DNA of 64,000 nt, from IMG/VR virus record IMGVR_UViG_3300021961_000023; one strand, written 5' to 3'. The notes under the pieces were generated by a model. It was not told the origin of the DNA, did not search any database, and was given only the letters and a program-made list of their open reading frames with translations. The position numbers and the translations under genes were made by a program. Positions 4,172 to 38,401 of the stretch are shown piece by piece (position 1 is the first letter of the stretch; each line of letters starts with the position of its first letter). This DNA is from a virus.

Positions 4172-4330
4172 CACTTTAGTAAAAACCTGATTTCTGGTTG
4201 TAGGGCAGGGTCCATTGGGCTCTGCCCTTAAAAATGCAAAAAATTTTGGTTTTTGCTCCAGTGGTGGACTGGGATCTCAGTGGGACTCAACGTTAGAATC
4301 CACTCTACACCAGACCTTCTGTGCATTTAA

Positions 4331-4389
4331 AAAACCAGTTGCCAAACTGGCACACTACCCACTTTCCACTGCCTGTCAAGACCTATAAT
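4331..4389 (+). promoter_or_regulatory. Early promoter cassette 3
   Basis: aaaaCCAGT-TGCCAA-ACTGGCACA; TATAAT 4384-4389; leader shared with cassette 2. Confidence 0.8.
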
Positions 4390-4413
4390 AACAAGGTAAT
4401 CGAAACCACGAAG

Positions 4414-4662
4414 ATGCCTGAGTTCTCTGGAGTTTTTCTGACCGTCCAAAATCATGGTTGCATTTACACTATTTGCACCGAAGGTGAACTGTTTTCTGCT
4501 CCCATCTACAAAGATGGTACTATGAACATGGAGGAGTTTGACCTTGTTGATTTTTACTCTGGTGATGAAGATGAAGTGGAGGAACTTGAAGGTATTCAAG
4601 CAGCACTGATTGATATGATGGTTCGCGTTGGTCTTTACTTCAAAAAACCCGTTGCAGCATGA
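4414..4662 (+). CDS. Hypothetical acidic protein
   Basis: ATG 4414 lies just after the promoter; the longer ORF-track start runs through the promoter. Confidence 0.65.
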   Translation: MPEFSGVFLTVQNHGCIYTICTEGELFSAPIYKDGTMNMEEFDLVDFYSGDEDEVEELEGIQAALIDMMVRVGLYFKKPVAA

Positions 4663-13685: not shown

Positions 13686-13844
13686 ATGTTTGAAACTAAA
13701 ACCTCCTGGTGGTTTGAAAAACAATCAAATAAACAATGGTTAAACCGTGCTCAATCAAAACTTGAAGAAGTTGTAGAACGACACGATGATGATATTGAAC
13801 AGATTGAAAGACGATTACGTTATTTGGAAGACCAACTACCATGA
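13686..13844 (+). CDS. Small coiled-coil protein (52 aa)
   Basis: AAGGA RBS; read manually. Confidence 0.55.
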   Translation: MFETKTSWWFEKQSNKQWLNRAQSKLEEVVERHDDDIEQIERRLRYLEDQLP

Positions 13845-13987
13845 CTTATACTGTATCTTATCTCAAACCAAAGAAGAAAGGATATGCACAACAGACTGCT
13901 ACGTTTCTAAAGATTGAAGATGCGATTCTATGGGAGAAACATGTATTAAAGGAAGGTGCTAAAGATCTACAAATCCTAGTATCTTAA
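13841..13987 (+). CDS. Small hypothetical protein (48 aa)
   Basis: YLKPKKKGYAQQTATFLKIEDAILWE; converges on the HNH gene. Confidence 0.6.
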   Translation: MTYTVSYLKPKKKGYAQQTATFLKIEDAILWEKHVLKEGAKDLQILVS

Positions 13988-14433
13988 ACGTTATTGTAAC
14001 GTACCTGATCAGTTAATACTTTAATGTATTTTCTTATCTTATGCCATTCCTCTGTAGGCATGATTGTCATACCATTAGGTAGGTGAGTAATCTCTTCTAC
14101 TCTATCTACTACTTCTACCTTTGGTCTTTTAACTCCTGCTCTAATCCAATGTAAGTTAGATGCATGATTATTAAACTTATCACCATCTAAGTGTTCAACA
14201 ACTCTATTCTTTGAGTATCCTTCACAGTAGAGGAATGCAACTAATCTATGAACATAAAAGGATCTTGATCTCTTTCTCTCTTTATCATAAACACTTACCG
14301 CAAAGTATTCTACACCCTTTGATCTACGGATAAACTGTTTGAGTTTCCTATTTGTTTTATTGTTAAAGACCTCTCCTTTCTCTGTTACTGTAAGGTTCTC
14401 TAATGAAGGATCTAAACTCCTCAAAGACTTCAT
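13984..14433 (-). CDS. HNH endonuclease-domain protein (NUMOD4/HNH_3-like)
   Basis: VHRLVAFLY....VEHLDGDKFNNHASNLHW; only credible minus-strand gene; ATG at 14433. Confidence 0.8.
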   Translation of the reverse strand: MKSLRSLDPSLENLTVTEKGEVFNNKTNRKLKQFIRRSKGVEYFAVSVYDKERKRSRSFYVHRLVAFLYCEGYSKNRVVEHLDGDKFNNHASNLHWIRAGVKRPKVEVVDRVEEITHLPNGMTIMPTEEWHKIRKYIKVLTDQVRYNNV

Positions 14434-14441
14434 AATCTGCT

Positions 14442-14581
14442 GCAACTAGTTGGACTATGTTATATAGGGTATTCTGCTGCAACAATGGTTGGAGTATATT
14501 ATGATATAGCGCAACTAGGTTGAAGTAGGAATAAATGTTAAAATTAATATGGTTGAGAGTATAGTGCAACGGGTTGGAGTA
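14442..14581. repeat. Five degenerate GCAAC-N2-4-GTTGGAGTA repeats
   Basis: Copies at 14442, 14479, 14511, 14551 (half copy), 14566; another at 15004. Confidence 0.65.
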
Positions 14582-14715
14582 GGTGAATCTCGACGAGAAA
14601 CCTGCATACTTATGTTGAATCTCGACGAGAAATGTGTGATCTTATGTTGAATAATGTGTGATCTTATGCTAAATCTCGACGAGAAATGTGTGATCTTATA
14701 GTCATCTTAGCCCGC

Positions 14716-14744
14716 ATTATATCAGATCTCGTCTAGAATGTCAA
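14716..14744 (-). promoter_or_regulatory. Perfect-consensus leftward sigma70 promoter
   Basis: Minus strand TTGACA (14744-14739)-N17-TATAAT (14721-14716). Confidence 0.8.
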
Positions 14745-14779
14745 TACGCCCGTGTCAGAAAATCTCGACGAGACGCACA

Positions 14780-14809
14780 TTGACATATAGGCATCATTCA
14801 TGGTATTAT
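14780..14809 (+). promoter_or_regulatory. Rightward sigma70 promoter
   Basis: TTGACA-N18-TATTAT with extended TG. Confidence 0.75.
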
Positions 14810-15054
14810 ATAATCTCGACGAGATCCACATGAATCCGCAGCACTATACTGCAATACATCTCGACTAGATTATGCAGCATATCGCAGCATTATACTGCAA
14901 TACTCGTTGCACTAGATCTCGACGAGACACAGTGACACACTGCACATGCTTCAACCACACGTTGCACTAGATCTCGACGACATATACAGCGTCATAATAT
15001 ACTGCAACGTATGGTTGGACTAGATGCATATATAATAGCGTCCAGATGTTACAC

Positions 15055-15083
15055 TTGACGCAGGACGCCATATCTGTTATCAT
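15055..15083 (+). promoter_or_regulatory. sigma70 promoter
   Basis: TTGACG-N17-TATCAT with extended TG. Confidence 0.7.
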
Positions 15084-15108
15084 ACTTGTTGTATCGCACA
15101 GGTTTCCT

Positions 15109-15279
15109 ATGATCACGTATGCACAGAAGCAAAAGTATCGCATCACCCTGGAAGTCGAGGTGATGGATGACTTTGACCCCTATCAGATTGAGTGGAAAAA
15201 TGTACTTCTCCTGGAGGGAAATGAGTCCTGCCAGGCATATATTGAGGATCTTAGCAGAGTTGATGAACTTAAATGGTAA
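15109..15279 (+). CDS. Hypothetical protein
   Basis: ATG 15109 after the promoter. Confidence 0.6.
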   Translation: MITYAQKQKYRITLEVEVMDDFDPYQIEWKNVLLLEGNESCQAYIEDLSRVDELKW

Positions 15280-15281
15280 CT

Positions 15282-15341
15282 TGTGCCAGTTGTTAAAGTG
15301 TCACAGAGGGGGTTGCAATGCCCCCTTTTTGATGCAATGAT
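15282..15341 (+). promoter_or_regulatory. Early promoter cassette 7
   Basis: TGTGCCAGT-TGTTAA-AGTGTCACA; TTGCAA-N17-AATGAT. Confidence 0.75.
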
Positions 15342-15367
15342 ACACAAGTCGTCGAGATTGATGTAAC

Positions 15368-15529
15368 TTGAAGAACTACCGAGTTCGTGTCGAAACTTAT
15401 GACGGTTGCGTGACGATTTGGCATGAAAAGTCTAAAGCAAAGACTGCTGACAAATTGATACTTAACCGTGTCTACAATCAACTCTGTGGTCTGAATATTA
15501 AAGAGATCGAAGTTACTCCTTCTGTCTGA
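15368..15529 (+). CDS. Hypothetical protein (53 aa, TTG start)
   Basis: Read manually; fills the space after cassette 7. Confidence 0.5.
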   Translation: MKNYRVRVETYDGCVTIWHEKSKAKTADKLILNRVYNQLCGLNIKEIEVTPSV

Positions 15530-15557
15530 ACATTCTCTCGTTAACTAACACAAACTC

Positions 15558-15761
15558 ATGATGACTGATAATACTCTGGAACCCAAAGAACTTCTCGATC
15601 AGGTGTTAACTAAGATCGCACAAAAGTATGTCTTTGGTCTTGAAACTTTGGAGACTCAGAATAGTGATTCTGCAGACTTTTATGATGTCGCAGTGTGGCA
15701 GATTAGAGATGCTCTCAGGGATGCATTCGTGGCAGGAATGCATACAGGTATGACAATCTGA
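15558..15761 (+). CDS. DUF6900-like small protein
   Basis: LETLETQNSDSADFYDVAVWQIRDALRDAF..G. Confidence 0.65.
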   Translation: MMTDNTLEPKELLDQVLTKIAQKYVFGLETLETQNSDSADFYDVAVWQIRDALRDAFVAGMHTGMTI

Positions 15762-25375: not shown

Positions 25376-28300
25376 ATGGTAAACAGAGTCAAAATCAGTT
25401 CGATTGTAGAAGGTCAACTCCCTGAGTTCGTAAGGGAGGACTTTCCTCTTGTAGCAGAGTTTTTACAAGAGTACTATAGATCACTAGAGCATCAAGGTGG
25501 AACCCTTGATGTTTTACAAAATATTGATCAATACGTAAAACTTGAAGAACTTACAAATTTAACTGAAGAGTCAACTCTTACTAGTGATGTATCATACGTT
25601 GATACAGATATTACTGTTGATAGTACTCTAGGATTTCCAGATACATACGGATTGATTCAAATTGATTCGGAAATCATCACTTACACTGGTAAAACCGCAA
25701 CATCATTTACTGGATGTTTGCGTGGATTTTCAGGTATTTCATCTTTTAAAAGTCAGAATAAACCAGACACATTAGTTTTTTCAAAAACTTCTGTAGGCAG
25801 TCACACTTCTGGTACGAAAGTTAAAAATCTTAGTATTCTTTTCCTGAAGGAGTTTTTAAGAAAAATAAAAACTCAAATAACTCCAGGTTTCGAAGAAAGA
25901 GAGTTATACACTGGATTGGATCAAAAACTGTTTCTTAAACAGTCGAAAAACTTTTATGAAAGCAAGGGTGCAGATGAATCCTTTGAGATTCTTTTCCGTG
26001 CTCTTTATGGAGTTGATGTAGAAGTTTTAAAACCAAGAGATTATCTTTTTGAGCCATCGGATGCTCAATATAGAGTCACAAAGGATTTAGTCGTTGAACC
26101 CATTTATGGGGATCCTCTTGATTTAGTTAACAGAACTTTGTTCCAAGATGAGACTGATGATTTCAATCAAGCTCGTGGATCAATCACAAAAGTTGAAAAA
26201 CTAACAAAGAACTCAAAAGACTATTACAAAATAAGTCTTGATTCTGATTATGATAAAGATATTAATGTGTTTGGATCAATCTTTGGAAATTTCCAGGTAC
26301 ATCCAAAGACTAGAGTTATAACTGCAGTATCTGCTGGTGCAACAACTCTTGATGTTGATTCAACTGTAGGATTCCCAACATCAGGAACTTTAGTTGTAAC
26401 AAGTGCTCAAGGTGTAGAAAACTATATTAACTATTCTAGTAAGACATTAAACCAGTTCTTTGATTGCCAGGGAACTCCTGATATTCTATCAGAAACTGAT
26501 GTAAGATTTGACGTATATGCATATGGTTATTCTGGAGTTGGAACAGATAATCCTGTTCATGTTCGTATTGGCGCAGTTCTTTCAGATCTTGAGTTTTTAG
26601 ATGCTCCTTATGGTCTCCATGAAGCAGATACTATTAAGATCAAAGCACTAGGATCTTCACTAACAGATAAAAAATCAAATAACTGGATTTTTAATATTCC
26701 ATCTGTTTTTGATATTAAAACTGTTGAGTTAGTTGATACATCAGATTATACCTATAGATTTACAACTTTTGATCGTCTGACACTGTATGATGGTGATTCT
26801 GTAAATGTTTTGGCGTCTAATGGCGTTTCTTTTGCAGCACAAGTAACTTCTATTGAAAATGAAAGCACTTTCCAAGTAAGAATTGGAACAGGAATCAACG
26901 AAGGTCTTTCATATAAGGTATATAAAAATCTAACAAAGGTCAATAGTACAAACTTCCCTAGAGCGAATAGGAATAACGCAAACGTACAAAATGTTTATAC
27001 TGATTTAAAAAATTCTTTATACGTTGCTTCACCATCTCTACCTGCATATTTCAGACAAGAACTTAAGGTAAGAGATAGATCGATTACTTTCAGTGGAGTT
27101 TTTACTAATAATCAATCTATTAATGTTGGGTTCCATGGATTATATACTGGTGATTCAGTTGTATACATTCCTGGTTCTGATTCCAATAAGTTGAATATTG
27201 ATGCTGGAGTTTATTTTGTAAAGAAAATTTCTGATAATGAGATTTCCCTTTACAGAAGTAGAGCTAATATCTTTAATAATGTTTATATTCCAATCACTGG
27301 AAATGTAACTAATAATAAGTTTGAGTTGTTTGCTTTATCAGGTCAAACTCTTGAAACACAAAAACTCATTAGAAAGTTTTCAGAACCAGAGAATGGGTCT
27401 ATAACTTATGATACCAAACCAGGTCAAATTGGAATGCTGGTAAATGGTGTTGAGATTCTGAACTATAAATCATCAGATTCTATTTTCTATGGTCCAATAG
27501 AGAGTATTATTGCTACTTCTGGTGGAGACGGATATGATGTGATTAATCCACCTATTTTAGGTATTACTGATCCTGTAGGAACAGGAGCGACTGGTATATG
27601 TGCGGTAGAAGGATCTTTTGAAGATATTCTAGTTGTTGATGGTGGTTTTGATTATGTTGGCACTCCAGTGATTAGTATCATTGGTGGTGGTGGGCAAGGT
27701 GCCACTGCGAAAGCAGATATGGTGACTCTGAAGCATGTTAATAACTTTAATGCTTTTGGAGAGGCACTGGAAGTAAACCTAGTAAGTAATACTATTGGAT
27801 TTTCTTCATTCCATAAGTTTAGAAATGGTGAAGCAGTTGTATACTCAACTGGTGGTGCATCAAATGTAGGAGGAATCTCCACTGATGCCTGGTACTATGT
27901 TAATACGGTTTCAGATAGCAGTGTTCAACTTCACAACACATATGAAGATGCTATTGCTGGTATCAACACCATTAACTTAACTTCATATGGAAGTGGAACT
28001 CACTCTTTAACTGCTGTAAAGAGAAAGAGAACTATTAATAGTGTTAAAGTAACGAATCCTGGTTCTGGATATAAGACCAGACAGGTATCTGTAATGCCAA
28101 GTTATGTAAATGTTGCATCTAACATTATTAACTTTAATGATCATGGATATAATGATGGGGAAATAGTTGTATATACCGCAACATCTACTCCGATTACTGG
28201 ATTAACATCTGGATCTAGTTATTATGTAACTAGAGTAAATGATGATCAGTTTAGATTATCAGTTGTAGGTGTTGGATCGACAGTTGCAAAAGATTTTTAT

Positions 28301-31300
28301 TACACAACTAATCAGTTTGTTGATCTTAAGTCTCAAGGATCTGGAGTACACAACTTTAACTATGAACCAATAAGAGTTATTGTTAGTGGAAATATTGGTG
28401 TTACAACTTTTTCTGGTCAAGATTTTAATGCTGTTTTACAACCAATCGTCAGAGGAAAAATCACAGGAGTTTCTTTAACTGATAGTGGTGTTGGTTACGG
28501 TAGCAGTGAAATAATCGGAGATAACAGACAACCAACCTTTACATTAAATCGTGGTTCTGGTGCTCTACTAGAACCAGTTGTTATTAATGGCACAATAGTA
28601 GAAGTGATTGTAAGATCTGGTGGATCTGGATATAACTCTCCACCAAAACTCAACGTACTTGGAGATGGTCAAGGTGCTGAGTTAGTACCAGTCATTAAAA
28701 ATGGCGCTATATCAAGTGTTTTTATTGCTAATAGTGGATATAACTACACAAATAGCAAAACTAGCATTGATATTATTCCTGCTGGATCAGGAGCTAGTTT
28801 CCAGGCAAACATTAAAACATGGGTTATCAATCTATTTGAGAGATATCTACAGAATGGTATCATAACAGATGATGATGGTATTCTTGTAGAGGGATTGAAT
28901 CCAACTTACGGACTTCAGTACACTCACTTGTATTCGCCAAGAAAACTAAGGCAAAATGTTTATAGAGAAGTAACTCGTCTAAACAAACAAGTTTTTGTTC
29001 CCGATCTTATTATTGATCCTGTTTCAAAAACTGAAAGAGAATCATTGAATCACTCACCAATTATTGGATGGGCTTATGATGGTAATCCAATATATGGACC
29101 TTATGGATATGATACTCCACAAGGTGGTATAGTCAGGGCATTGAGATCTGGATATGAGAGGATAACTGCTGCAAATAGACCCCCATTTTCACAAGGATTC
29201 TTCATTGATGATTTTGTCTTCAATGGAACTGGGGATCTTGATGAGCATAATGGTAGATTCTGTATTACTCCCGAGTATCCAAATGGTACGTATGCATATT
29301 TTACAACGATTTCTCCTGATTCTGTTGAGAGTTCTGGTCCTTTCTTAGGATATAAACTCCCACAGTTCCCGTATTTTATTGGAAACACATATAGATCGGT
29401 TCCAATTGATTTTAACTTCAAAAAAGAATCAAATCAAGATGAGTTTGATCTGGTTAGCGCAAATCTTTCTAGAAATATAACTCCATATAATCTTACATCA
29501 CAAACTCAAGATTATCCATATGTATTAAATCCAAATAAAATCCAAAACCATGATTCTGAAATAGAATCTGTCATTAATGGATATATTGAAGATATCAAAA
29601 TCACTAAACGTGGAGTAGATTATAAGGTTGGTGACTCTATTATTTTTGATAATACAGGTACTAGTGGATATGGAGCAGCAGCTAAAGTTTCTAGAGTTGA
29701 CGGTGTAACTGTAAGTGGGGTTAGAGTTTCTAGTACCCAACTTACAAATATTGAGTTTAGTCAATCTGGTGAAACTGGGACTTTAATCGGATTTGCACCT
29801 CAACCACACAATCTGAAGAACAACGATGAGGTTTCGATTAGTGGACTCTCAACTACTAATACAGGACTACAAAGATTTTTCTCCATTGGTGTTCCACAGA
29901 ACACTCTTGTTCTAAGGTCAGGGATAGGAACAACTGGAGCAACTGGTATTGTTACTTACATCAGTGTTTCTGGTTCACTTTCATATCCAGATATTGCTGT
30001 AAATGATGTTTATGATATTGAAAATGAAAAAGTAAGAGTTCTTTCTATTGATGAATCAGGTTCTAGAATCAGAGTAGAAAGACAATATGGAAATACTTCT
30101 GGAGCAGCACATACTGCATCAAGTTTTGCATATGAGGATTCCAGAAAGTTCTTTGTAAATGTTGGTTATTCTCAAAACTTAGATCTTGCACCAAATAAAG
30201 AAATTTATTTTAATCCAGTAGAGTCTATCGCTGTTTCTGGAGTTGGTGCTACTGATTTTGTATCTGTAGTTGGTGTAGCAACAACATCAAAAGTAGTAGT
30301 TTCTTTTGCAAATCCAGGTTCTGGGGTAACTTCTGTTGTTTTATCTGCTAAACAAATTTACTTACCAAATCATGGATTAAAAACTAATGATCAACTGATT
30401 TATAAAACAAATGGTGGAGATCCTATTAGAGTTTCACTTGCAATAACAGAGCAATTTGATACTGGTTATGCAGTTGGAATCAACACGTTTACTCTTTCTA
30501 ATAATACAGTTGTATATGCAGCAAAGATCTCTAATGATATTATTGGCATTGCAACTAATCCTATTGTTCCAGACAATGGAAATCCAGGGTCATTCGTTGG
30601 TATAGGTTCTACGACTAATGGATTACTGTACTTTGAGAATATTGGAACAGGAGTAAAACATAGTTTTGAAACAAACTATCTCAATACTCTTTCTGGATTA
30701 GTCAATAGAAATGTTGTTACCGTTTCCACTGCTTCCACTCATAACCTTATTGCAAATGATACTATAAGTGTCAATGTATTTCCTGGTATTACAACTTCAA
30801 TCAAACTCATTTATAATGATGAACAGAAACGAGTATTAGGAAATAAAGTAAGTTTTGCTAAAACTTCTGTAGACTTGTTGAGTAATGTTATCACTGTACC
30901 AAATCATGGGTTTGTTACAGGACAGAAAGTTTTATATGAATCTGCACTATCATCCGCAGATAGAGTCATTACTTCAAATACAAGTGTAGATGTGCCTACA
31001 ATTTTCCCATCTCCCTTAGAAGTAGAAACACCATATACGTTACTAGCGACTGAAAATGGAGTAATCATAGTTGATGCAGAATCGATTCCAGATAACTCTC
31101 TATTCTATGTCGTTGTTTTAGATTACAACAGAATACAACTTGCACCTACTTATCATGATGCTACAAAGGCAAATCCAACAGTTATTGATATGGTGTCTAA
31201 CACATATGGAAGTGTTGCACCAGTTAATCCCCCAATAGCATTGATTAAGAATCAAATCGTTGAGTTTGATTTGTCGGATTCCAGTCTCTCTTATCGCAGA

Positions 31301-34300
31301 GGTTCGATTGATTACCCTGCTTTTGAACTTAACTTCTATAAAGATTCTAACTTCAGAAACAAGTTTGTTTCTTCAGGATCATCTCCAACGTTTGAAATTA
31401 GATCTACAGGAACTGTTGGAACATCTGGAGCAAAGGTAACTGTAAGTGTATCCAATTCACTTCCTAAGAACTTCTATTATAAGTTAGATCCAGTAGATCT
31501 ATTAAACGTTCCAGAGAACAAGAAAAATATTATAGTTGATGAGGAAAATATACCAAATCATAATAGTATTATTGTAACAACCAGCGTCTATAGTGGCAAT
31601 CATAGAATAACTGGTATTGGATCAACTTCTATTCAATATAATGTATTATTAAAACCAGAAAGAGTAAGTTATAACACTTCTGAGGCAACTCTTTCATATA
31701 ATACAAACTCTGTTAGAGCTATAGGTTCAATCAACGAGATTGACATTAGAAGTCGCGGTAAAAAATACCAAATTTTACCAGCAATAACCAGCGTTGCTTC
31801 TACTTGGGGAAGAGGTGCAGTTTTAGAACCATTAAGCACTAATATTGGTAAGGTCAAGAAAAAGTGCTTATCAAATATTGGATTTGATTATCCATCAGAT
31901 TATACATTAAGACCATCAGCAATTGTTCCTCAGGTTTTAAAACTTGATCCATTAACTACTATAGAAAAAATAGGCATTAGTTCTAATGGAAATGGATACT
32001 CAATTGCACCTAATCTCATTTTCATTGATGGATTTACTGGTAGAATCGTTGATGTTGAGTTATCTTATTCTATTGGTGACTCTCAAGTATCTATTTTAAA
32101 AAATAGTACAGAAATATACAATACTGCTCCCGTTATTATTCCAGTTAATAATACAAATGGAGTTGGTATTAGTTCAATAACTTATGATTCTGGTAAGAAA
32201 ACAGTACAAGTCATTTTGAATCCAGGTGCAGTAGGATATAGTACTGTCTCTGCTTTCCCATTCAATATTGGTGATAAAGTTTTAGTTGAAAATGTTAGTG
32301 TTGGTATTGGAAGCACTGGAAAAGGATTTAACTCCAAAAACTATGGATACAAACTATTCACTATTACTGCAACTGATCCAAATATTGGTGGTGCTAACCC
32401 AACTATTACATATAGTTTGGATGGTGATTTAAATGATGGCAAAGTTCCTGGAGTTTTTGATCCTGTTAACTCAAATGGAAGAGTTATTGGGTTAAAAGAT
32501 TTCCCAATTTTTAATGTAACTTTAAGAAAAAATGTATTTTTACTTGGGGAAGAAGTAAAGTCTGGAAACAAAGAAGGTGTAGTTGAAAACTGGAACTCTA
32601 GAGGAGATAATCTTAACCTAAGAGTCGCTAGTGAAGATGGATTTGAATCTGGCGATACTATCAGAGGTTCAACTTCTGGATCTGTTGCAATTATACAATC
32701 AGTACAAAACTTTAGAGCAATCTATAAAACTGGAGCTGGTGCAACAGTTGTCAACGGTTTCAATAGAAACACTGGATTCTTAAATGATAGCATACAAAGA
32801 CTACATGATAATGATTATTATCAGTACTTCTCATATTCTCTTAAGTCTCCAATAGAAATCAACACTTGGGACAACCCTGTAAGTTCTCTTGATCATACCG
32901 CTGGATTTAAAAAGTTTAGTGATCTGCAAGTTATTTCTGCTGGAGCAATAGATCGAGATGGAAATACTGGTATTACAACGGATCAAAATGATGGAGATTT
33001 CCTAGGTATTGCAAATATTGATCAAGAGATTGATCTTAACTGTGTTAATGATTTTGACCTTGCAACAGAAAATAATATTATTATTGATGGTACTGTCTAC
33101 TCTGATGAGATTATCTTGAAGTCGAGAGATATTCAAGATTATTTTGAATCAATAGGAAATAGAGTCTTAATGATCGATGACATTAGTGGTCAGTTTAATG
33201 ATCGTCCAAGACCAACAAGATATTCTGTTATTGATGAGTTTCCTCTAACAAGTTTCCGTTCAAGAAAATATTTACTCTTTGTACGTGATAGAAGATTTAC
33301 TGAGACAAAGGAAAATATTTTTGTTTCTGTCCTACATGATGATGTATTCGGATATCTTAACCAGTATGCAAGAGTTGAAACAGTTGAGGACATGGGTTAT
33401 TTTGACTTTGATGTTCTTAATAATAATGGTAGATTACTTTTCTATCCTGAAAAGTATCAATATAATAACTTTGATATCACTTTCACTGCATATGGTCTAA
33501 AAGAAGGTATTTCTGGTATTGGTTCTACAGCACTAGGAGATATTGCAGAGATCAGAACAACATCCACCATAGTTTCTAATGGAATTGTTACTCCTATTGT
33601 CGTTATTGCTGATACATACAGAGCATCAAAACTGCTGATTGATATTCAAACTAGTGATCAAAGATATGAGTTTGACGAGTTTACTCTTATTCATGATGGA
33701 ATAGGAACTTGTGGAGAAGTTGAGGCAGTTGAATATGCACAGTTAACTTCACACTCTCGTGATGACGCAAGCAGTGTAGGTTTAGGAACATATAGTGTTG
33801 TTTGTGGAGCTGCAAATACTCAATCATATTTGGTTGGAGTTACCACATCAGTTTTTGCATCCTTTAGTGGTGTATCTACTGCTTTAAATGGAACAGGTAT
33901 AGGTACTGATGGTGGATTTGCAATCGGATCTCATATTGTCTTTACTGGAACTGGTATTGGTGTTTCAAATCGTAGAGTTGCAGTCACAAATCCTCTTGAT
34001 CTCCAACTTGTTGATACTTTTGTACTTACTGGTTTAGCTGGTGATGACAATAATGGTGGAGAAAAACCTCTGAATATCTTTGGACAGAATCAAACATTAA
34101 AGGTTAACTATAGTATTGATGGTGGGTCAACTTTTGTCGGATTGGGAACTTTAATATCAAACTCAGATATTGCTGCACCAATAAGAGAGTATTCTGTAGG
34201 TATTCCAACAATAGCTAGAACATCATCTACTATTTTCCAGATTGAACAACCAACATCAAGTGGCGGTACATCTGATAACTATGGAATAACTCATATTGGG

Positions 34301-37300
34301 TTTACAAATTCTGGTATTTCTACTACTGACATTGTAGTAAACTTCCATCCTTTTGCTGGTGTTGCTGCTACAGTAGATGTATTAAGAGTTTCTATTGCAA
34401 ATACTTCAGCAACTGGAGTTGGAACTACTTCATTAAACGCTGCTATTATTGATTCTCACTACACATCTATTGCATCTTCAAGTTCTCCAGTTGCAACTAC
34501 TGTAGCAACTTATGATGCCACCATTTATAATGGCGGATACTACATTGCAGTAGTTGAAGACTTAACAAATGGATGGCAGCAAGTTTCTGAGTTAATGGTT
34601 GCAAATAATGAAGAATTCAACAATATAACTGAGTTTGGTGAAATATTCACAGTTGTTACTCTTGGTGAGTTTGGAGTTAGAAGAAGTGGTAATCAAGTTC
34701 AAGTAACATTTGAACCAAATCCAGATGCACACATGGAAGTTAGAATCTTCCAAAATGCAATGCGTTTGGTTGATCCTTTGAACGGGGTAACTAAAGTTGA
34801 TATGCGTAATGGCACAGTAGAAACTGGTGCTGGTGTTTACTTTGGTACGGAAACTGATGTTAAGAGGCAATTTGAACTAACTCATAAGTCTCTTCCAATC
34901 TTTAAGAGAGTTTTTGATCCAACTGCTGTAGGTATTGTTAGCATTACCGACAATACAATCAGGATTCCACAAAACTTCTTTGTAACTGGCGAAGCAGTTG
35001 ATTACGTAGCAGCAGATAGATACGTTTTACCTCAACCTATTGGTATTGCCACTACTACAATATCTGGTATTGGATTAACGGATAAGATGCCATCAACTGT
35101 TTACATTGTTAAAGTTGATGAGATTAATATTCAAGTTGCTGCTAGTGCATCTGAAGCACTAGCAGTACCACCATCTGTTCTTGATATTACTTCTGTTGGT
35201 ATTGGATCTATTCATAGATTTGATGCGAGAAAACAGAATACTAAAGGATTAATCACTATTGACAACATGATTCAATCACCAGTTGCTGGAACTGCGGTGA
35301 CTGTTGGACTTGTCACTACAGTACAACCAACCACTGATAGAATCACTCTCTCTGGTATAACTTCTATTTTTGCAGGGGATATTCTGAAGATTGATGATGA
35401 GATCATGAGAGTTGCAACTGTTGGAGTTGGAACAACTAATGTTCTTATTGTTAATAGACCTTGGATGGGAACGGGTCTTTCGACTCACTTCTCTGGCGCA
35501 ACTGTAACCAAACTATCAGGTAACTACAATATTGCAGATAACCAAATAAACTTTGTTTCTGCACCATATGGAGCATATCCAATAAGCACAACAACTTCTG
35601 GTCCAGATGAAGTTGATTGGACGGGTTTAACTACTCATAGTACATTTAGTGGACGCATATTCACTAGAAATTCTGAACCTGGTAGTGATATAGAACCATA
35701 CACTTATAACACTATTTTTGATGATATTTCTGAAGATTTTAATGGTATTACTACATCATTTAGATTAAAATCAAATCGCGCCGATGTTACAAATGTTGCA
35801 GAGGATAATGCAATCATTCTGATAAGAGATATCTATCAAGGTCCTAGAAGAGCAAATGGAACAGTTCGTATTGAAGGGGACTATGAGTTAGTAGAAGGTT
35901 CTGGAATAACTACTGCAATTTTCCAAGAAACAGATCTTGGAGTTAAATATGACAACAATACTAATAATATTCCTAGAGGTGGAATGATTGTTAGTGTTGG
36001 ATCATCACAAAGTCGTGGTTATCAACCACTTGTAACTGCAGGTGGAACTGCTATTGTTAACTCTTCTGGATCTATAACCGCAATTTCAATAGGAAATACA
36101 GGAGCTGGTTATAGAGAATTAGTTCAAAAAGAAATCATTATTTCTGCATACAATCCTGTAACTGGAACATCTTCTACGATTGGTATTGCAACAGCATTTG
36201 ATGGACACATTGTAGGTTATAGAATTGATTCTCCTGGAACTGCATATACCTCAACAAATCCTCCTATTATTTCTATAGATTCTCCAGCAGGATATGATAG
36301 TATTCCTTTAGTGTACTCTAAAGATTATCCAAATAATACTGGAGTTGGAACTGGTCTTGTAGTTAATCTTGTTGTTGGTGCAGGATCTACAGTTATTGAT
36401 TACAACATTGTAAACTATGGATTTGGGTATAGGCAAGGTGATGTATTAACAATCCCAAGATCGGGAATCGGAAGCATTCCTCGTAATAGTGGAATTGGTC
36501 ACATTGAGTTTACTTTGACTGTTGAAAAAACTTATAAAGATGAGTTTAATGGATGGGCACTTGGAAACTTCTTACCACTTGATGATATTAGTAGATATTT
36601 TGATGGATACAGAACTGAGTTCCCAATCACTGTTAATGGTGTAAGAACCTCGATTCGTGCTAAAAAAGGATCTCAGATTGATGTTCAAGCATGTTTATTA
36701 GTTTTTATTAATGATATTCTTCAGGTTCCTGGTGATGGATATGTATTTAATGGTGGATCTGTTATAAGATTTACAGAAGCTCCTAAAGGATATGATGCTG
36801 ATGCTCCTTGGTCTGGAGATACTGTTAAAATAGTATTTTACAGAGGATCAAAGGATATTGATGTTCAACTGGTTGATATTCTTGAAACCATTAAACCTGG
36901 AGATACTGTTGAACTTTATGATGATAATCCTGTTTTTGCAGAAGATGATAGACTTGTCACTGAAATTCTTGCTACAGACACATTACAAACTAATGTTTAT
37001 CCTGGACCTGGTATTACAACTAACTTGTCTTATGAGAGAGCACTTCAATGGTGCAGACAAACTGAAGACAAGATAATAAATGGTCAACCAGTCGCTAAAG
37101 ATAGAGAGATCTATAAAGCACTGCTAAACCCTGCATCTTCAATCATTCAAAATGTTAGTGTTGGCGATACTTCAATATATGTTGAAAGTGTAAGAGGATT
37201 CTTTGATAATACCAGAGAAAATGTAAGTGGGAGAACTTTAAATACGATTGAAATCATCTCTCAGGATTCTATCTGCGCGGCCGCGGCGACTGCAGTTGTT

Positions 37301-38401
37301 TCTGCAGCAGGAACGATTTCATCTATTGTATTAACTGATCCTGTTACTGGTGTAGCAACAACCACTGCAGGTGGTTCTGGATATCGCTCAATACCTGATG
37401 TTACTATTTCACTTCCTACTGGAATTGGGACAACTGGTAGAGCAACCGCTGTTGCTAATGTGACTAATGGTATCGTTACTAGTTTTACTATAACAAATCC
37501 TGGTTACGGATACACATTTACAAGTGTTCCTTTCGTTATGATATCTCAACCAGATTCTCATAAAGAAGAAGTTGTAGCAAAACAGTATAATGGTGATTTT
37601 GGAGTTATTGTTGGTATTGCAACTACTACAATAGTTGGTTTAGTAACAACTGGAGTCAAAGGTTTAGTATTAAATCTCGATATTCCAGATAACTCTTTCT
37701 TACGTGATCAAACCTATGTTGGTACTGCAATAACAGAAACTAGAATAGAAGTAGGAGACTACTTTACTATCAATAGTTCCAACCTTGGATTTGGAGTGAC
37801 TTCTCTTCGCTATGCTGACGGTTCTGTAATCAGTTATGCATCAACTTTCTTTGATGGTGTTTACCAAGTTGCTAATGTTTCCTATGGATCAACTTTAGCA
37901 GGAACTTTAATCGAACAAACTCGTTATGTTACTATAGATCCTGAAATATTTGATGGTCCTGTTGTTGTTGGACCAAATGATCCAGATGGAACTTTAATCA
38001 CAGGCAGTCCATATACATTCTCTATCACAGAGACTATTGATAGTCCTGTAGAAATTGGATCTTCTTCAATAGCTAGAATTTTGAGTGGAGTAACTTTAAC
38101 AATCGATGATATTTCAAGAACCTCACTCATCGTTGAAGCAACAGGAAGAGCTATTGTTGGTGATAGTGTCCCTTCAAGAATAACAGTTAGAGTTCAAGAT
38201 TATAATGGATTACAAAGTCAGTATCATCCTGGAAGTTACAAAGGTAGATTCTATGGCGACTACAGTTGGGGTAAGATTTCTATACCATCTAGATCGTCTA
38301 CTAGAAACTTTGTAGGATATTCTACTGCTGGATATGTTGGACTTTCCACTTCACCATTGGTAAGAAGAAAGAATCCATTAAGGACAATCAATTATCTTTG
38401 A
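25376..38401 (+). CDS. gp7: Giant (4341 aa) baseplate wedge initiator gp7-like structural protein
   Basis: Lies between gp6 and gp8; QLPEFVRE..P...FL..YY N-terminus; YYQYFSYSLKS...HTAGFK segment; YHYH-like domain. Confidence 0.75.
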   Translation: MVNRVKISSIVEGQLPEFVREDFPLVAEFLQEYYRSLEHQGGTLDVLQNIDQYVKLEELTNLTEESTLTSDVSYVDTDITVDSTLGFPDTYGLIQIDSEIITYTGKTATSFTGCLRGFSGISSFKSQNKPDTLVFSKTSVGSHTSGTKVKNLSILFLKEFLRKIKTQITPGFEERELYTGLDQKLFLKQSKNFYESKGADESFEILFRALYGVDVEVLKPRDYLFEPSDAQYRVTKDLVVEPIYGDPLDLVNRTLFQDETDDFNQARGSITKVEKLTKNSKDYYKISLDSDYDKDINVFGSIFGNFQVHPKTRVITAVSAGATTLDVDSTVGFPTSGTLVVTSAQGVENYINYSSKTLNQFFDCQGTPDILSETDVRFDVYAYGYSGVGTDNPVHVRIGAVLSDLEFLDAPYGLHEADTIKIKALGSSLTDKKSNNWIFNIPSVFDIKTVELVDTSDYTYRFTTFDRLTLYDGDSVNVLASNGVSFAAQVTSIENESTFQVRIGTGINEGLSYKVYKNLTKVNSTNFPRANRNNANVQNVYTDLKNSLYVASPSLPAYFRQELKVRDRSITFSGVFTNNQSINVGFHGLYTGDSVVYIPGSDSNKLNIDAGVYFVKKISDNEISLYRSRANIFNNVYIPITGNVTNNKFELFALSGQTLETQKLIRKFSEPENGSITYDTKPGQIGMLVNGVEILNYKSSDSIFYGPIESIIATSGGDGYDVINPPILGITDPVGTGATGICAVEGSFEDILVVDGGFDYVGTPVISIIGGGGQGATAKADMVTLKHVNNFNAFGEALEVNLVSNTIGFSSFHKFRNGEAVVYSTGGASNVGGISTDAWYYVNTVSDSSVQLHNTYEDAIAGINTINLTSYGSGTHSLTAVKRKRTINSVKVTNPGSGYKTRQVSVMPSYVNVASNIINFNDHGYNDGEIVVYTATSTPITGLTSGSSYYVTRVNDDQFRLSVVGVGSTVAKDFYYTTNQFVDLKSQGSGVHNFNYEPIRVIVSGNIGVTTFSGQDFNAVLQPIVRGKITGVSLTDSGVGYGSSEIIGDNRQPTFTLNRGSGALLEPVVINGTIVEVIVRSGGSGYNSPPKLNVLGDGQGAELVPVIKNGAISSVFIANSGYNYTNSKTSIDIIPAGSGASFQANIKTWVINLFERYLQNGIITDDDGILVEGLNPTYGLQYTHLYSPRKLRQNVYREVTRLNKQVFVPDLIIDPVSKTERESLNHSPIIGWAYDGNPIYGPYGYDTPQGGIVRALRSGYERITAANRPPFSQGFFIDDFVFNGTGDLDEHNGRFCITPEYPNGTYAYFTTISPDSVESSGPFLGYKLPQFPYFIGNTYRSVPIDFNFKKESNQDEFDLVSANLSRNITPYNLTSQTQDYPYVLNPNKIQNHDSEIESVINGYIEDIKITKRGVDYKVGDSIIFDNTGTSGYGAAAKVSRVDGVTVSGVRVSSTQLTNIEFSQSGETGTLIGFAPQPHNLKNNDEVSISGLSTTNTGLQRFFSIGVPQNTLVLRSGIGTTGATGIVTYISVSGSLSYPDIAVNDVYDIENEKVRVLSIDESGSRIRVERQYGNTSGAAHTASSFAYEDSRKFFVNVGYSQNLDLAPNKEIYFNPVESIAVSGVGATDFVSVVGVATTSKVVVSFANPGSGVTSVVLSAKQIYLPNHGLKTNDQLIYKTNGGDPIRVSLAITEQFDTGYAVGINTFTLSNNTVVYAAKISNDIIGIATNPIVPDNGNPGSFVGIGSTTNGLLYFENIGTGVKHSFETNYLNTLSGLVNRNVVTVSTASTHNLIANDTISVNVFPGITTSIKLIYNDEQKRVLGNKVSFAKTSVDLLSNVITVPNHGFVTGQKVLYESALSSADRVITSNTSVDVPTIFPSPLEVETPYTLLATENGVIIVDAESIPDNSLFYVVVLDYNRIQLAPTYHDATKANPTVIDMVSNTYGSVAPVNPPIALIKNQIVEFDLSDSSLSYRRGSIDYPAFELNFYKDSNFRNKFVSSGSSPTFEIRSTGTVGTSGAKVTVSVSNSLPKNFYYKLDPVDLLNVPENKKNIIVDEENIPNHNSIIVTTSVYSGNHRITGIGSTSIQYNVLLKPERVSYNTSEATLSYNTNSVRAIGSINEIDIRSRGKKYQILPAITSVASTWGRGAVLEPLSTNIGKVKKKCLSNIGFDYPSDYTLRPSAIVPQVLKLDPLTTIEKIGISSNGNGYSIAPNLIFIDGFTGRIVDVELSYSIGDSQVSILKNSTEIYNTAPVIIPVNNTNGVGISSITYDSGKKTVQVILNPGAVGYSTVSAFPFNIGDKVLVENVSVGIGSTGKGFNSKNYGYKLFTITATDPNIGGANPTITYSLDGDLNDGKVPGVFDPVNSNGRVIGLKDFPIFNVTLRKNVFLLGEEVKSGNKEGVVENWNSRGDNLNLRVASEDGFESGDTIRGSTSGSVAIIQSVQNFRAIYKTGAGATVVNGFNRNTGFLNDSIQRLHDNDYYQYFSYSLKSPIEINTWDNPVSSLDHTAGFKKFSDLQVISAGAIDRDGNTGITTDQNDGDFLGIANIDQEIDLNCVNDFDLATENNIIIDGTVYSDEIILKSRDIQDYFESIGNRVLMIDDISGQFNDRPRPTRYSVIDEFPLTSFRSRKYLLFVRDRRFTETKENIFVSVLHDDVFGYLNQYARVETVEDMGYFDFDVLNNNGRLLFYPEKYQYNNFDITFTAYGLKEGISGIGSTALGDIAEIRTTSTIVSNGIVTPIVVIADTYRASKLLIDIQTSDQRYEFDEFTLIHDGIGTCGEVEAVEYAQLTSHSRDDASSVGLGTYSVVCGAANTQSYLVGVTTSVFASFSGVSTALNGTGIGTDGGFAIGSHIVFTGTGIGVSNRRVAVTNPLDLQLVDTFVLTGLAGDDNNGGEKPLNIFGQNQTLKVNYSIDGGSTFVGLGTLISNSDIAAPIREYSVGIPTIARTSSTIFQIEQPTSSGGTSDNYGITHIGFTNSGISTTDIVVNFHPFAGVAATVDVLRVSIANTSATGVGTTSLNAAIIDSHYTSIASSSSPVATTVATYDATIYNGGYYIAVVEDLTNGWQQVSELMVANNEEFNNITEFGEIFTVVTLGEFGVRRSGNQVQVTFEPNPDAHMEVRIFQNAMRLVDPLNGVTKVDMRNGTVETGAGVYFGTETDVKRQFELTHKSLPIFKRVFDPTAVGIVSITDNTIRIPQNFFVTGEAVDYVAADRYVLPQPIGIATTTISGIGLTDKMPSTVYIVKVDEINIQVAASASEALAVPPSVLDITSVGIGSIHRFDARKQNTKGLITIDNMIQSPVAGTAVTVGLVTTVQPTTDRITLSGITSIFAGDILKIDDEIMRVATVGVGTTNVLIVNRPWMGTGLSTHFSGATVTKLSGNYNIADNQINFVSAPYGAYPISTTTSGPDEVDWTGLTTHSTFSGRIFTRNSEPGSDIEPYTYNTIFDDISEDFNGITTSFRLKSNRADVTNVAEDNAIILIRDIYQGPRRANGTVRIEGDYELVEGSGITTAIFQETDLGVKYDNNTNNIPRGGMIVSVGSSQSRGYQPLVTAGGTAIVNSSGSITAISIGNTGAGYRELVQKEIIISAYNPVTGTSSTIGIATAFDGHIVGYRIDSPGTAYTSTNPPIISIDSPAGYDSIPLVYSKDYPNNTGVGTGLVVNLVVGAGSTVIDYNIVNYGFGYRQGDVLTIPRSGIGSIPRNSGIGHIEFTLTVEKTYKDEFNGWALGNFLPLDDISRYFDGYRTEFPITVNGVRTSIRAKKGSQIDVQACLLVFINDILQVPGDGYVFNGGSVIRFTEAPKGYDADAPWSGDTVKIVFYRGSKDIDVQLVDILETIKPGDTVELYDDNPVFAEDDRLVTEILATDTLQTNVYPGPGITTNLSYERALQWCRQTEDKIINGQPVAKDREIYKALLNPASSIIQNVSVGDTSIYVESVRGFFDNTRENVSGRTLNTIEIISQDSICAAAATAVVSAAGTISSIVLTDPVTGVATTTAGGSGYRSIPDVTISLPTGIGTTGRATAVANVTNGIVTSFTITNPGYGYTFTSVPFVMISQPDSHKEEVVAKQYNGDFGVIVGIATTTIVGLVTTGVKGLVLNLDIPDNSFLRDQTYVGTAITETRIEVGDYFTINSSNLGFGVTSLRYADGSVISYASTFFDGVYQVANVSYGSTLAGTLIEQTRYVTIDPEIFDGPVVVGPNDPDGTLITGSPYTFSITETIDSPVEIGSSSIARILSGVTLTIDDISRTSLIVEATGRAIVGDSVPSRITVRVQDYNGLQSQYHPGSYKGRFYGDYSWGKISIPSRSSTRNFVGYSTAGYVGLSTSPLVRRKNPLRTINYL

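Follow-up and report, generated by a model that had tools for sequence, protein, structure and literature searches.

The 64,000-nucleotide stretch analysed here (IMG/VR virus record IMGVR_UViG_3300021961_000023, hereafter the window) belongs to a T4-like cyanophage (Kyanoviridae): its flanks match Synechococcus and Prochlorococcus myoviruses and the Pfam families Kyano_Gp96 and gp25 are present. Between positions 14588 and 14982 it carries nine copies, exact or nearly so, of the palindrome TCTCGACGAGA, in and around two divergent sigma70-type promoters, and this array belongs to a widespread family of palindrome arrays found on cyanophage early promoters, of which it is a large and rearranged representative. 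Judging from the sequence, the nine palindromes would, on balance, probably constitute a cooperative operator array: a sequence-specific dimeric DNA-binding protein, more likely to be encoded by the phage than by its host, would bind them and shut off early promoters.

The exact palindrome is found six times in the window, always in this gap, for an expectation of 0.01, and none of 100 shuffled sequences equalled that number. Three palindromes with a single mismatch bring the total to the nine that a first-pass annotation of the same DNA had counted. That annotation had also described the two promoters, scored here in a sigma70 consensus scan, and the arrangement of the sites around them, all of which is borne out: the leftward spacer, the interval separating the -35 boxes and the rightward start each hold a single site, and of the remaining six, three lie beyond on the left and three on the right. 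In order along the window, the sites and the leftward (P_L) and rightward (P_R) promoters are:

14588-14598, plus strand: site 1, exact TCTCGACGAGA, within the tandem-repeat leader left of P_L
14620-14630, plus strand: site 2, exact TCTCGACGAGA, 32 bp after site 1
14674-14684, plus strand: site 3, exact TCTCGACGAGA; its unit and that of site 2 are 95% identical over 37 nt
14716-14744, minus strand: P_L, TTGACA-N17-TG-TATAAT, 12/12 consensus matches, aimed at an HNH homing-endonuclease-like gene
14727-14737, minus strand: site 4, near copy TCTAGACGAGA, filling the P_L spacer and beginning 1 nt past the -35 box
14763-14773, plus strand: site 5, exact TCTCGACGAGA, between both -35 boxes
14780-14809, plus strand: P_R, TTGACA-N18-TG-TATTAT, 11/12 matches, within a 241-bp segment missing from the relative L336
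14814-14824, plus strand: site 6, exact TCTCGACGAGA, 4 nt past the P_R -10 box, over the expected start
14859-14869, plus strand: site 7, TCTCGACTAGA, one mismatch
14917-14927, plus strand: site 8, exact TCTCGACGAGA
14972-14982, plus strand: site 9, TCTCGACGACA, one mismatch

Start to start, successive sites are spaced by 32, 54, 53, 36, 51, 45, 58 and 55. The near identity of the site 2 and site 3 units points to a recent tandem duplication; over 20 nt, the site 8 unit is ~80% identical to that of site 9. With nine sites, a number reached by only 2 of 122 other arrays, the window array is among the largest. The absence of a credible open reading frame (ORF), also remarked upon in the first-pass annotation, is confirmed: the ~660 bp from the start of the HNH gene (14433/14445) to the first conserved gene on the right (gene 'b', 15109) contain only unconserved ORFs of 25-33 amino acids (aa). 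As a separate observation, GATC flanks several of the palindrome copies, e.g. at 14725, 14822, 14914 and 14969.

A scan of IMG/VR for two exact TCTCGACGAGA copies 15-45 nt apart revealed that the extended palindrome, ATCTCGWCGAGAT, is clustered in at least 119 contigs. The consensus over 413 instances extends symmetrically to A-TCTCGACGAGA-T, while the flanks are essentially information-free. The window has the traits that define this family, namely TCTCG-W-CGAGA with flanking A/T in at least two copies within 90 bp, and a site that lies within, or touches, a sigma70-type promoter spacer (P_L, 14727-14737). It also shares the synteny of the family, the array being downstream of a 48-aa gene and upstream of gene 'b', a gene that several isolates also carry and that accompanies 98 of the 119 motif loci. 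One family feature is missing: the tiny acidic gene, called here gene 'a', that follows directly behind the promoter in relatives, for which a hidden Markov model of 63 'a' proteins gave no match at the window locus. At the syntenic locus of relatives, where the first-pass annotation had envisaged arrays of different palindromes, arrays of the same palindrome recur, although L336 has none. The motif is also present, unannotated, in sequenced isolates:

P-SSM2, NC_006883 65995-66169: one array, before PSSM2_098
S-SRM01, MW015081 85570-85731, 88119-88253 and 90907-91006: three arrays
S-T4, MH412654 2747-2934: one array

No palindrome clusters were found in S-SM2, Bellamy, S-SCSM1, P-SSM4, Syn9, S-PM2 or P-HM2. 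The first-pass claim that nothing of this kind had been described in cyanomyoviruses therefore needs to be qualified: no published description of the motif or array was found in the literature searched on the motif string, PeSL and cyanophage operators, but the motif itself was already there in the genomes of isolates, including P-SSM2. Outside phages, paired sites occur in 110 stretches of genome contigs, with none cyanobacterial among the 80 listed, and in a sample of 401 Cyanobacteriota genomes those of 1.5-2.3 Mb (picocyanobacteria, judging from their size) had almost all 0 copies. This rarity makes a host regulon unlikely, and a host regulator was rejected as the binding protein on these grounds. 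As an aside, the paired pattern is recurrent in Microbacterium sp. bgisy203 (L133, L135, L143, L180, L190, L203, L204 and L208) and forms a 72-bp tandem array in a 'Candidatus Aldehydirespiratoraceae' metagenome-assembled genome (L168); both probably reflect repeat elements of high-GC actinobacteria that have nothing to do with the phage arrays.

A typical relative has two to seven sites around one sigma70-type promoter, generally with a site at or just after the -35 box, and a location within the promoter spacer is recurrent. In P-SSM2 the promoter reads TTGACA-a-TCTCGACTAGA-tctgg-TATAAT, a design shared with P_L of the window, where it faces left, toward the HNH gene. The distance from the end of the spacer site to the -10 box is 0 nt in L083, 5 nt in the window and P-SSM2, 7 nt in L002 and S-SRM01 and 16 nt in S-T4; occlusion fits this variability better than a fixed activator box. 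Taken together, the arrays of P-SSM2, S-SRM01 and S-T4 resemble that of the window in having an 11-13-bp palindrome clustered over a sigma70-type promoter, in synteny upstream of gene 'b'; they differ in having 4-5 sites, one rightward promoter and gene 'a', whereas the window has nine sites, a divergent promoter pair and the HNH gene, without 'a'. The same expanded form without gene 'a' exists in L083, whose sites align one to one with those of the window while the spacers between them have diverged.

Gene 'a' is common in the family without being universal: it was found at 88 loci, with gene 'b' directly behind it. It codes for a family of 45-75 aa that is extremely acidic and Tyr-rich (MYDDYDLDY...DYARDGQDYExLAYRHYA) and had zero PHROG matches; tblastn with gene 'a' likewise gave 0 matches, for which the low-complexity filter is possibly responsible. 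Its product might imitate DNA or inhibit some protein of the host. In the isolates it is located as follows:

NC_006883 66124-66279: PSSM2_098, a weak 'a' homologue (E 9e-5)
MW015081 ~85650-85785: gene 'a', unannotated
MH412654 ~2690-2835: gene 'a', unannotated

Of the sites at the 61 distinct loci with gene 'a', 77 fall in coding sequence and 261 outside it; the latter recur in steps, at about -16, -57, -88, -119 and -152 from the ATG, and at 57 of the 61 loci a site lies 11-20 nt before the ATG, i.e. in the leader. One or two further sites are found inside the 'a' coding sequence, all 77 in the frame that gives LDE, as (D/N)LDE. Small genes of three or more unrelated families stand behind arrays, one example being the 64-aa family at S-SRM01 cluster 2. 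Spacing between neighbouring sites is not random either: in 122 distinct arrays (n = 428) it peaks at 21-24, 31-33, 39-43, 51-53 and 60-62 bp, and the resultant amounts to 0.36-0.40 at periods of 9.25-10.5 bp as compared with at most 0.18 in 1000 jittered controls, figures from which no clean probability can be drawn since the arrays are related.

To the left of the arrays, relatives possess a module made of an AT-rich tract with AAGGTT-like words, TTCTCAA/TTGAGAA inverted repeats and two direct repeats, e.g. CTTCTAAACCCCTC; it also contains a leftward promoter, TTGACA-N17-TG-TACGCT/TAGAAT, with the conserved transcript start GCTCGCTAAAC. Examples are:

L002, 2100-2480
L083, 3790-4060
L130 (P-SSM2), 1470-1680
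L106, reverse complement of 4190-4420

This module is absent from the window, which has the HNH gene and a second repeat in its place.

The sites can be separated from the promoters that they decorate. The closest relative found, L336 (IMGVR_UViG_3300020196_001062), was located through its HNH protein (79% identity) and shares with the window, at 78-85% nucleotide identity, the HNH gene, the second repeats, the tandem-repeat leader, P_L, and the promoter and coding region of gene 'b'. It has none of the nine palindrome sites. Its counterpart of P_L is TTGACA-N17-TACAAT, without palindrome, and sites 1-4 are replaced by unrelated bases inside a homologous backbone. The remaining sites are lost with a single segment:

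14754-14994, no strand assigned: 241-bp segment with P_R and sites 5-9, a clean indel, since the BLAST blocks 14695-14753 and 14995-15315 are contiguous in L336

As L336 keeps promoters without sites, the latter are an extra layer that was added to, or removed from, existing promoters.

From these observations a mechanism may be outlined. In a subset of T4-like cyanophages, a putative regulator would act on early promoters of the sigma70 type. In the window, the array would wrap a divergent pair in which P_L drives the inserted HNH gene and P_R drives a 290-nt leader followed by gene 'b'. Protein bound at sites 4 (P_L spacer), 5 (between the -35 boxes) and 6 (P_R start) would bar RNA polymerase, and the flanking sites, many of them about whole helical turns apart, could stabilise binding and serve as roadblocks; the likeliest outcome would be early shut-off or negative feedback. 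As for the repeat-containing non-coding RNAs that the first-pass annotation had suggested, the leftward transcript is not necessarily non-coding, as it would enter the HNH gene, and the rightward one would enter gene 'b'.

Known systems offer two partial precedents. Lambdoid OR/OL with CI/Cro, as well as Arc/Mnt of P22, also have palindromic operators over back-to-back promoters with multiple, potentially cooperative sites. But no repressor genes flank the window array (there is the HNH gene on the left and an acidic 56-aa protein on the right), the lambdoid switch has three sites where nine are spread over 400 bp here, the sites of relatives enter coding sequence, and the phage is a lytic one of T4 type. 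The second precedent is provided by arrays bound by ribbon-helix-helix proteins, such as parC/ParR of R1 and the omega heptads of pSM19035, in which many short repeats over a promoter, on one helical face, undergo cooperative repressive coating. The window family similarly has short repeats flanking or overlapping a promoter on one helical face. It departs from the ParR and omega cases in that the repeats there are contiguous and of 7-11 bp, while here palindromes of 11-13 bp recur at ~21, 32 and 42 bp, and in that no partition or ribbon-helix-helix gene was found here, the model of the gene 'b' product having no fold match.

Several findings do not sit easily with an operator array. At non-coding sites the central A is favoured 3:1 on the sense strand, a bias not predicted for the symmetric site of a dimer, even if the central W occurs in both orientations. 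Only about 5 of the 8 window spacings are near whole helical turns, and the recent tandem duplication explains part of the copy number. Both neighbouring genes, 'a' and 'b', encode strongly acidic products, and some phages without the motif carry 'b' as well. Finally, no binder emerged. Pfam applied to 72 ORFs (first 23.5 kb of the window) detected no helix-turn-helix or other classical regulator, and a phyletic profile of whole genomes, with S-SRM01, S-T4 and P-SSM2 as positives versus S-SM2, P-SSM4, Syn9, S-PM2, P-HM2 and Bellamy as negatives, left four families, none with a recognisable DNA-binding domain.

The Pfam search returned only domains of unknown function (DUFs), Dam, HNH and gp25, plus a weak PrlF_antitoxin match (E 6e-4) that is assignable to no ORF. 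The four survivors of the profile are a 791-aa fibre-like protein, a 579-aa Gly-rich one, a 114-aa one and a highly charged one of 542 aa; Pfam, run on the 114-aa and 542-aa proteins only, gave no domain. Other candidates were tried and discarded. The recurrent neighbours of the arrays belong to families that carry no DNA-binding Pfam domain. Gene 'b' was set aside because it occurs in motif-negative phages and has no fold match in the PDB: the AlphaFold2 model of its product (pLDDT, a per-residue confidence score, of 85) has almost no assigned secondary structure and zero matches by Foldseek. The window genes missing from L336 (a 53-aa gene, a DUF6900 gene and a 128-aa gene) do not track the motif.

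The other features of the region are:

13841-13987, plus strand: 48-aa gene (phrog_13220) that anchors the synteny of the control region on its left side in relatives
13984-14445, minus strand: free-standing HNH homing-endonuclease-like gene, 149-153 aa (Pfam HNH_3, E 3e-5; PHROG 959 'HNH endonuclease', E 7e-19)
14442-14581, plus strand: second repeat, GCAAC-N3-6-GTTGGA(G/C)TA, four copies
14947-14965, minus strand, and 15004-15022, plus strand: two further copies of the second repeat, inverted, forming a long imperfect hairpin around palindrome site 9
15055-15083, plus strand: gene 'b' promoter, TTGACG-N17-TATCAT, 10/12 matches, kept in L083 and L336
15109-15279, plus strand: gene 'b', 56-aa acidic protein, phrog_12516, the first conserved gene downstream of the array

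Nearly all window genes point rightward, the minus-strand exception beside the array being the HNH gene. The six window copies of the second repeat, together GCAAC-N3-7-GTTGGA(G/C)TA, flank the palindrome array; L336 has five copies, and, L336 excepted, this repeat is not clustered in the other loci scanned (~130). No terminator-like sites were found in 13800-15600. Elsewhere in the window, a giant ORF of 4341 aa occupies 25376-38401 on the plus strand, and Pfam predicted a D12-class N6-adenine DNA methyltransferase among the ORFs of the first 23.5 kb, which, judging from its sequence, is probably the ORF at 496-1353.

A different explanation is that the palindrome-promoter units are a mobile or recombinogenic regulatory cassette, i.e. 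shared patches through which small early genes and homing endonuclease genes are shuffled. Its model would be the PeSL cassettes of T4-type phages, a terminator stem-loop upstream of an early promoter (PMC2839356, PMC4122927), which are the nearest published concept in these phages; the 2014 paper (PMC4122927) does not mention cyanophages. The resemblance is real: in both cases near-consensus early promoters and a conserved short motif lie in hyperplastic regions of small ORFs and are tied to gene gain and loss, and the array marks the boundary of an indel between close relatives, the clean 241-bp difference with L336 that takes away P_R and five sites. The distribution of the motif is patchy across genera, S-SRM01 has three arrays, and the small genes behind the arrays are of at least three unrelated families. 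Endonuclease genes are repeatedly found next to the arrays. At 34 IMG/VR loci (e.g. L053:9890-11071, L106:4543-5292, L116:2375-3481, L075:5960-6747) a GIY-YIG gene is placed upstream of the array module in divergent orientation, like the HNH gene of the window, and an HNH gene abuts S-SRM01 cluster 3 (MW015081 ~91060-91480, minus strand, an HNH-like gene recognised by eye from sequence). The control region may thus be a preferred insertion spot for free-standing endonuclease genes, and possibly owe its spread to them; co-conversion during endonuclease homing could aid such spread, which would be compatible with an operator function. As an account of the palindromes themselves, however, we hold the cassette to be unlikely. 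PeSL includes a terminator and no terminator-like site was found here, where a palindrome is instead repeated up to nine times in and around the promoter. Recombination requires neither a letter-perfect palindrome of 11-13 bp amid diverging spacers nor helical phasing, and at the four left sites the difference from L336 consists of substitutions in a homologous backbone, not of cassette exchange.

Of the two readings in the first-pass annotation, a bidirectional transcription-primed origin of replication or a repressor-controlled switch, the origin has fared less well. Operators over divergent promoters agree with sites that are palindromic, placed on promoters, phased and fixed amid diverging spacers. 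For an origin, whether primed by transcription like T4 oriF/oriG or based on iterons like oriE, the palindromes would bind an initiator and the divergent promoters would supply primer RNA. T4-type phages have several origins, which are dispensable. As at the T4 origins, strong promoters fire into non-coding, repeat-rich DNA; there is a short AT-rich patch of ~35 nt (~14520-14555) 160-190 nt downstream of P_L, and in relatives the array is adjoined by the conserved leftward promoter aimed at inverted repeats and the AT-rich tract. But the window is devoid of that module and of a conserved unwinding element, and its cumulative GC skew rises monotonically through the site with no switch. All nine sites were lost from, or never existed in, L336, which keeps the locus. 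Iteron origins consist of direct repeats by a rep gene, whereas these palindromes are in both orientations and no initiator, helicase-loader or rep gene is adjacent. Moreover, S-SRM01 has three arrays and P-SSM2 one, each heading small genes, and sites run into the 'a' coding sequence at fixed distances from its ATG, which is the geometry of gene control. An origin at this place is, in our opinion, highly improbable.

Equally improbable, to our mind, is that the motif acts in RNA, as a hairpin or protein site in 5′ leaders, or that it is a by-product of coding, a relic of duplicated pieces of 'a' encoding (D/N)LDE. The single LDE frame of the coding sites, the leader site before the ATG and the sense-strand excess of central A would all be expected in that case, and in the window the rightward leader is more stably folded than shuffled versions of it (z = -3.1), mainly through the inverted GCAAC...GTTGGA pair. 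However, 77% of the sites are non-coding, many of them upstream of or inside promoters and hence untranscribed, and both orientations occur. The hairpin would have only 4-5 bp with a loop of 1-3 nt, no significant structure was found in the leftward leader (z = -1.4), the Rfam search gave no match, and gene 'a' is absent from the window. An assembly artefact as the source of the array is unlikely, because independent relatives carry the same kind of array.

What an operator array would mean for these phages can be sketched. The timing of early genes in T4-like cyanophages is poorly understood, and to our knowledge they lack MotA and AsiA, the proteins of the T4 switch from early to middle transcription. 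An early element has reportedly been described for Syn9, by Doron et al. in ISME J in 2016; since Syn9 is without the palindrome, that element cannot be this motif. A phased, letter-perfect array in near-consensus early promoters would give a testable handle on a missing regulator, the more so as it recurs in at least 119 contigs and in P-SSM2, a culturable model that grows on Prochlorococcus, and the window/L336 pair offers a natural comparison, with and without sites, for tracing the factor. With the window, a divergent promoter pair, one side of which serves a homing-endonuclease gene, joins the promoters that such an array, in its expanded nine-site form, could control. More tentatively still, and with some doubt on our part, the arrays might be the cis half of an early-gene shut-off regulon whose trans half is a new kind of small phage protein lacking any domain recognised by Pfam, and they might be gained and lost as add-on modules, partly by hitch-hiking with homing endonuclease genes. 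If so, close relatives would differ as to whether a set of early genes ('a', 'b' and endonucleases) answers to the array.

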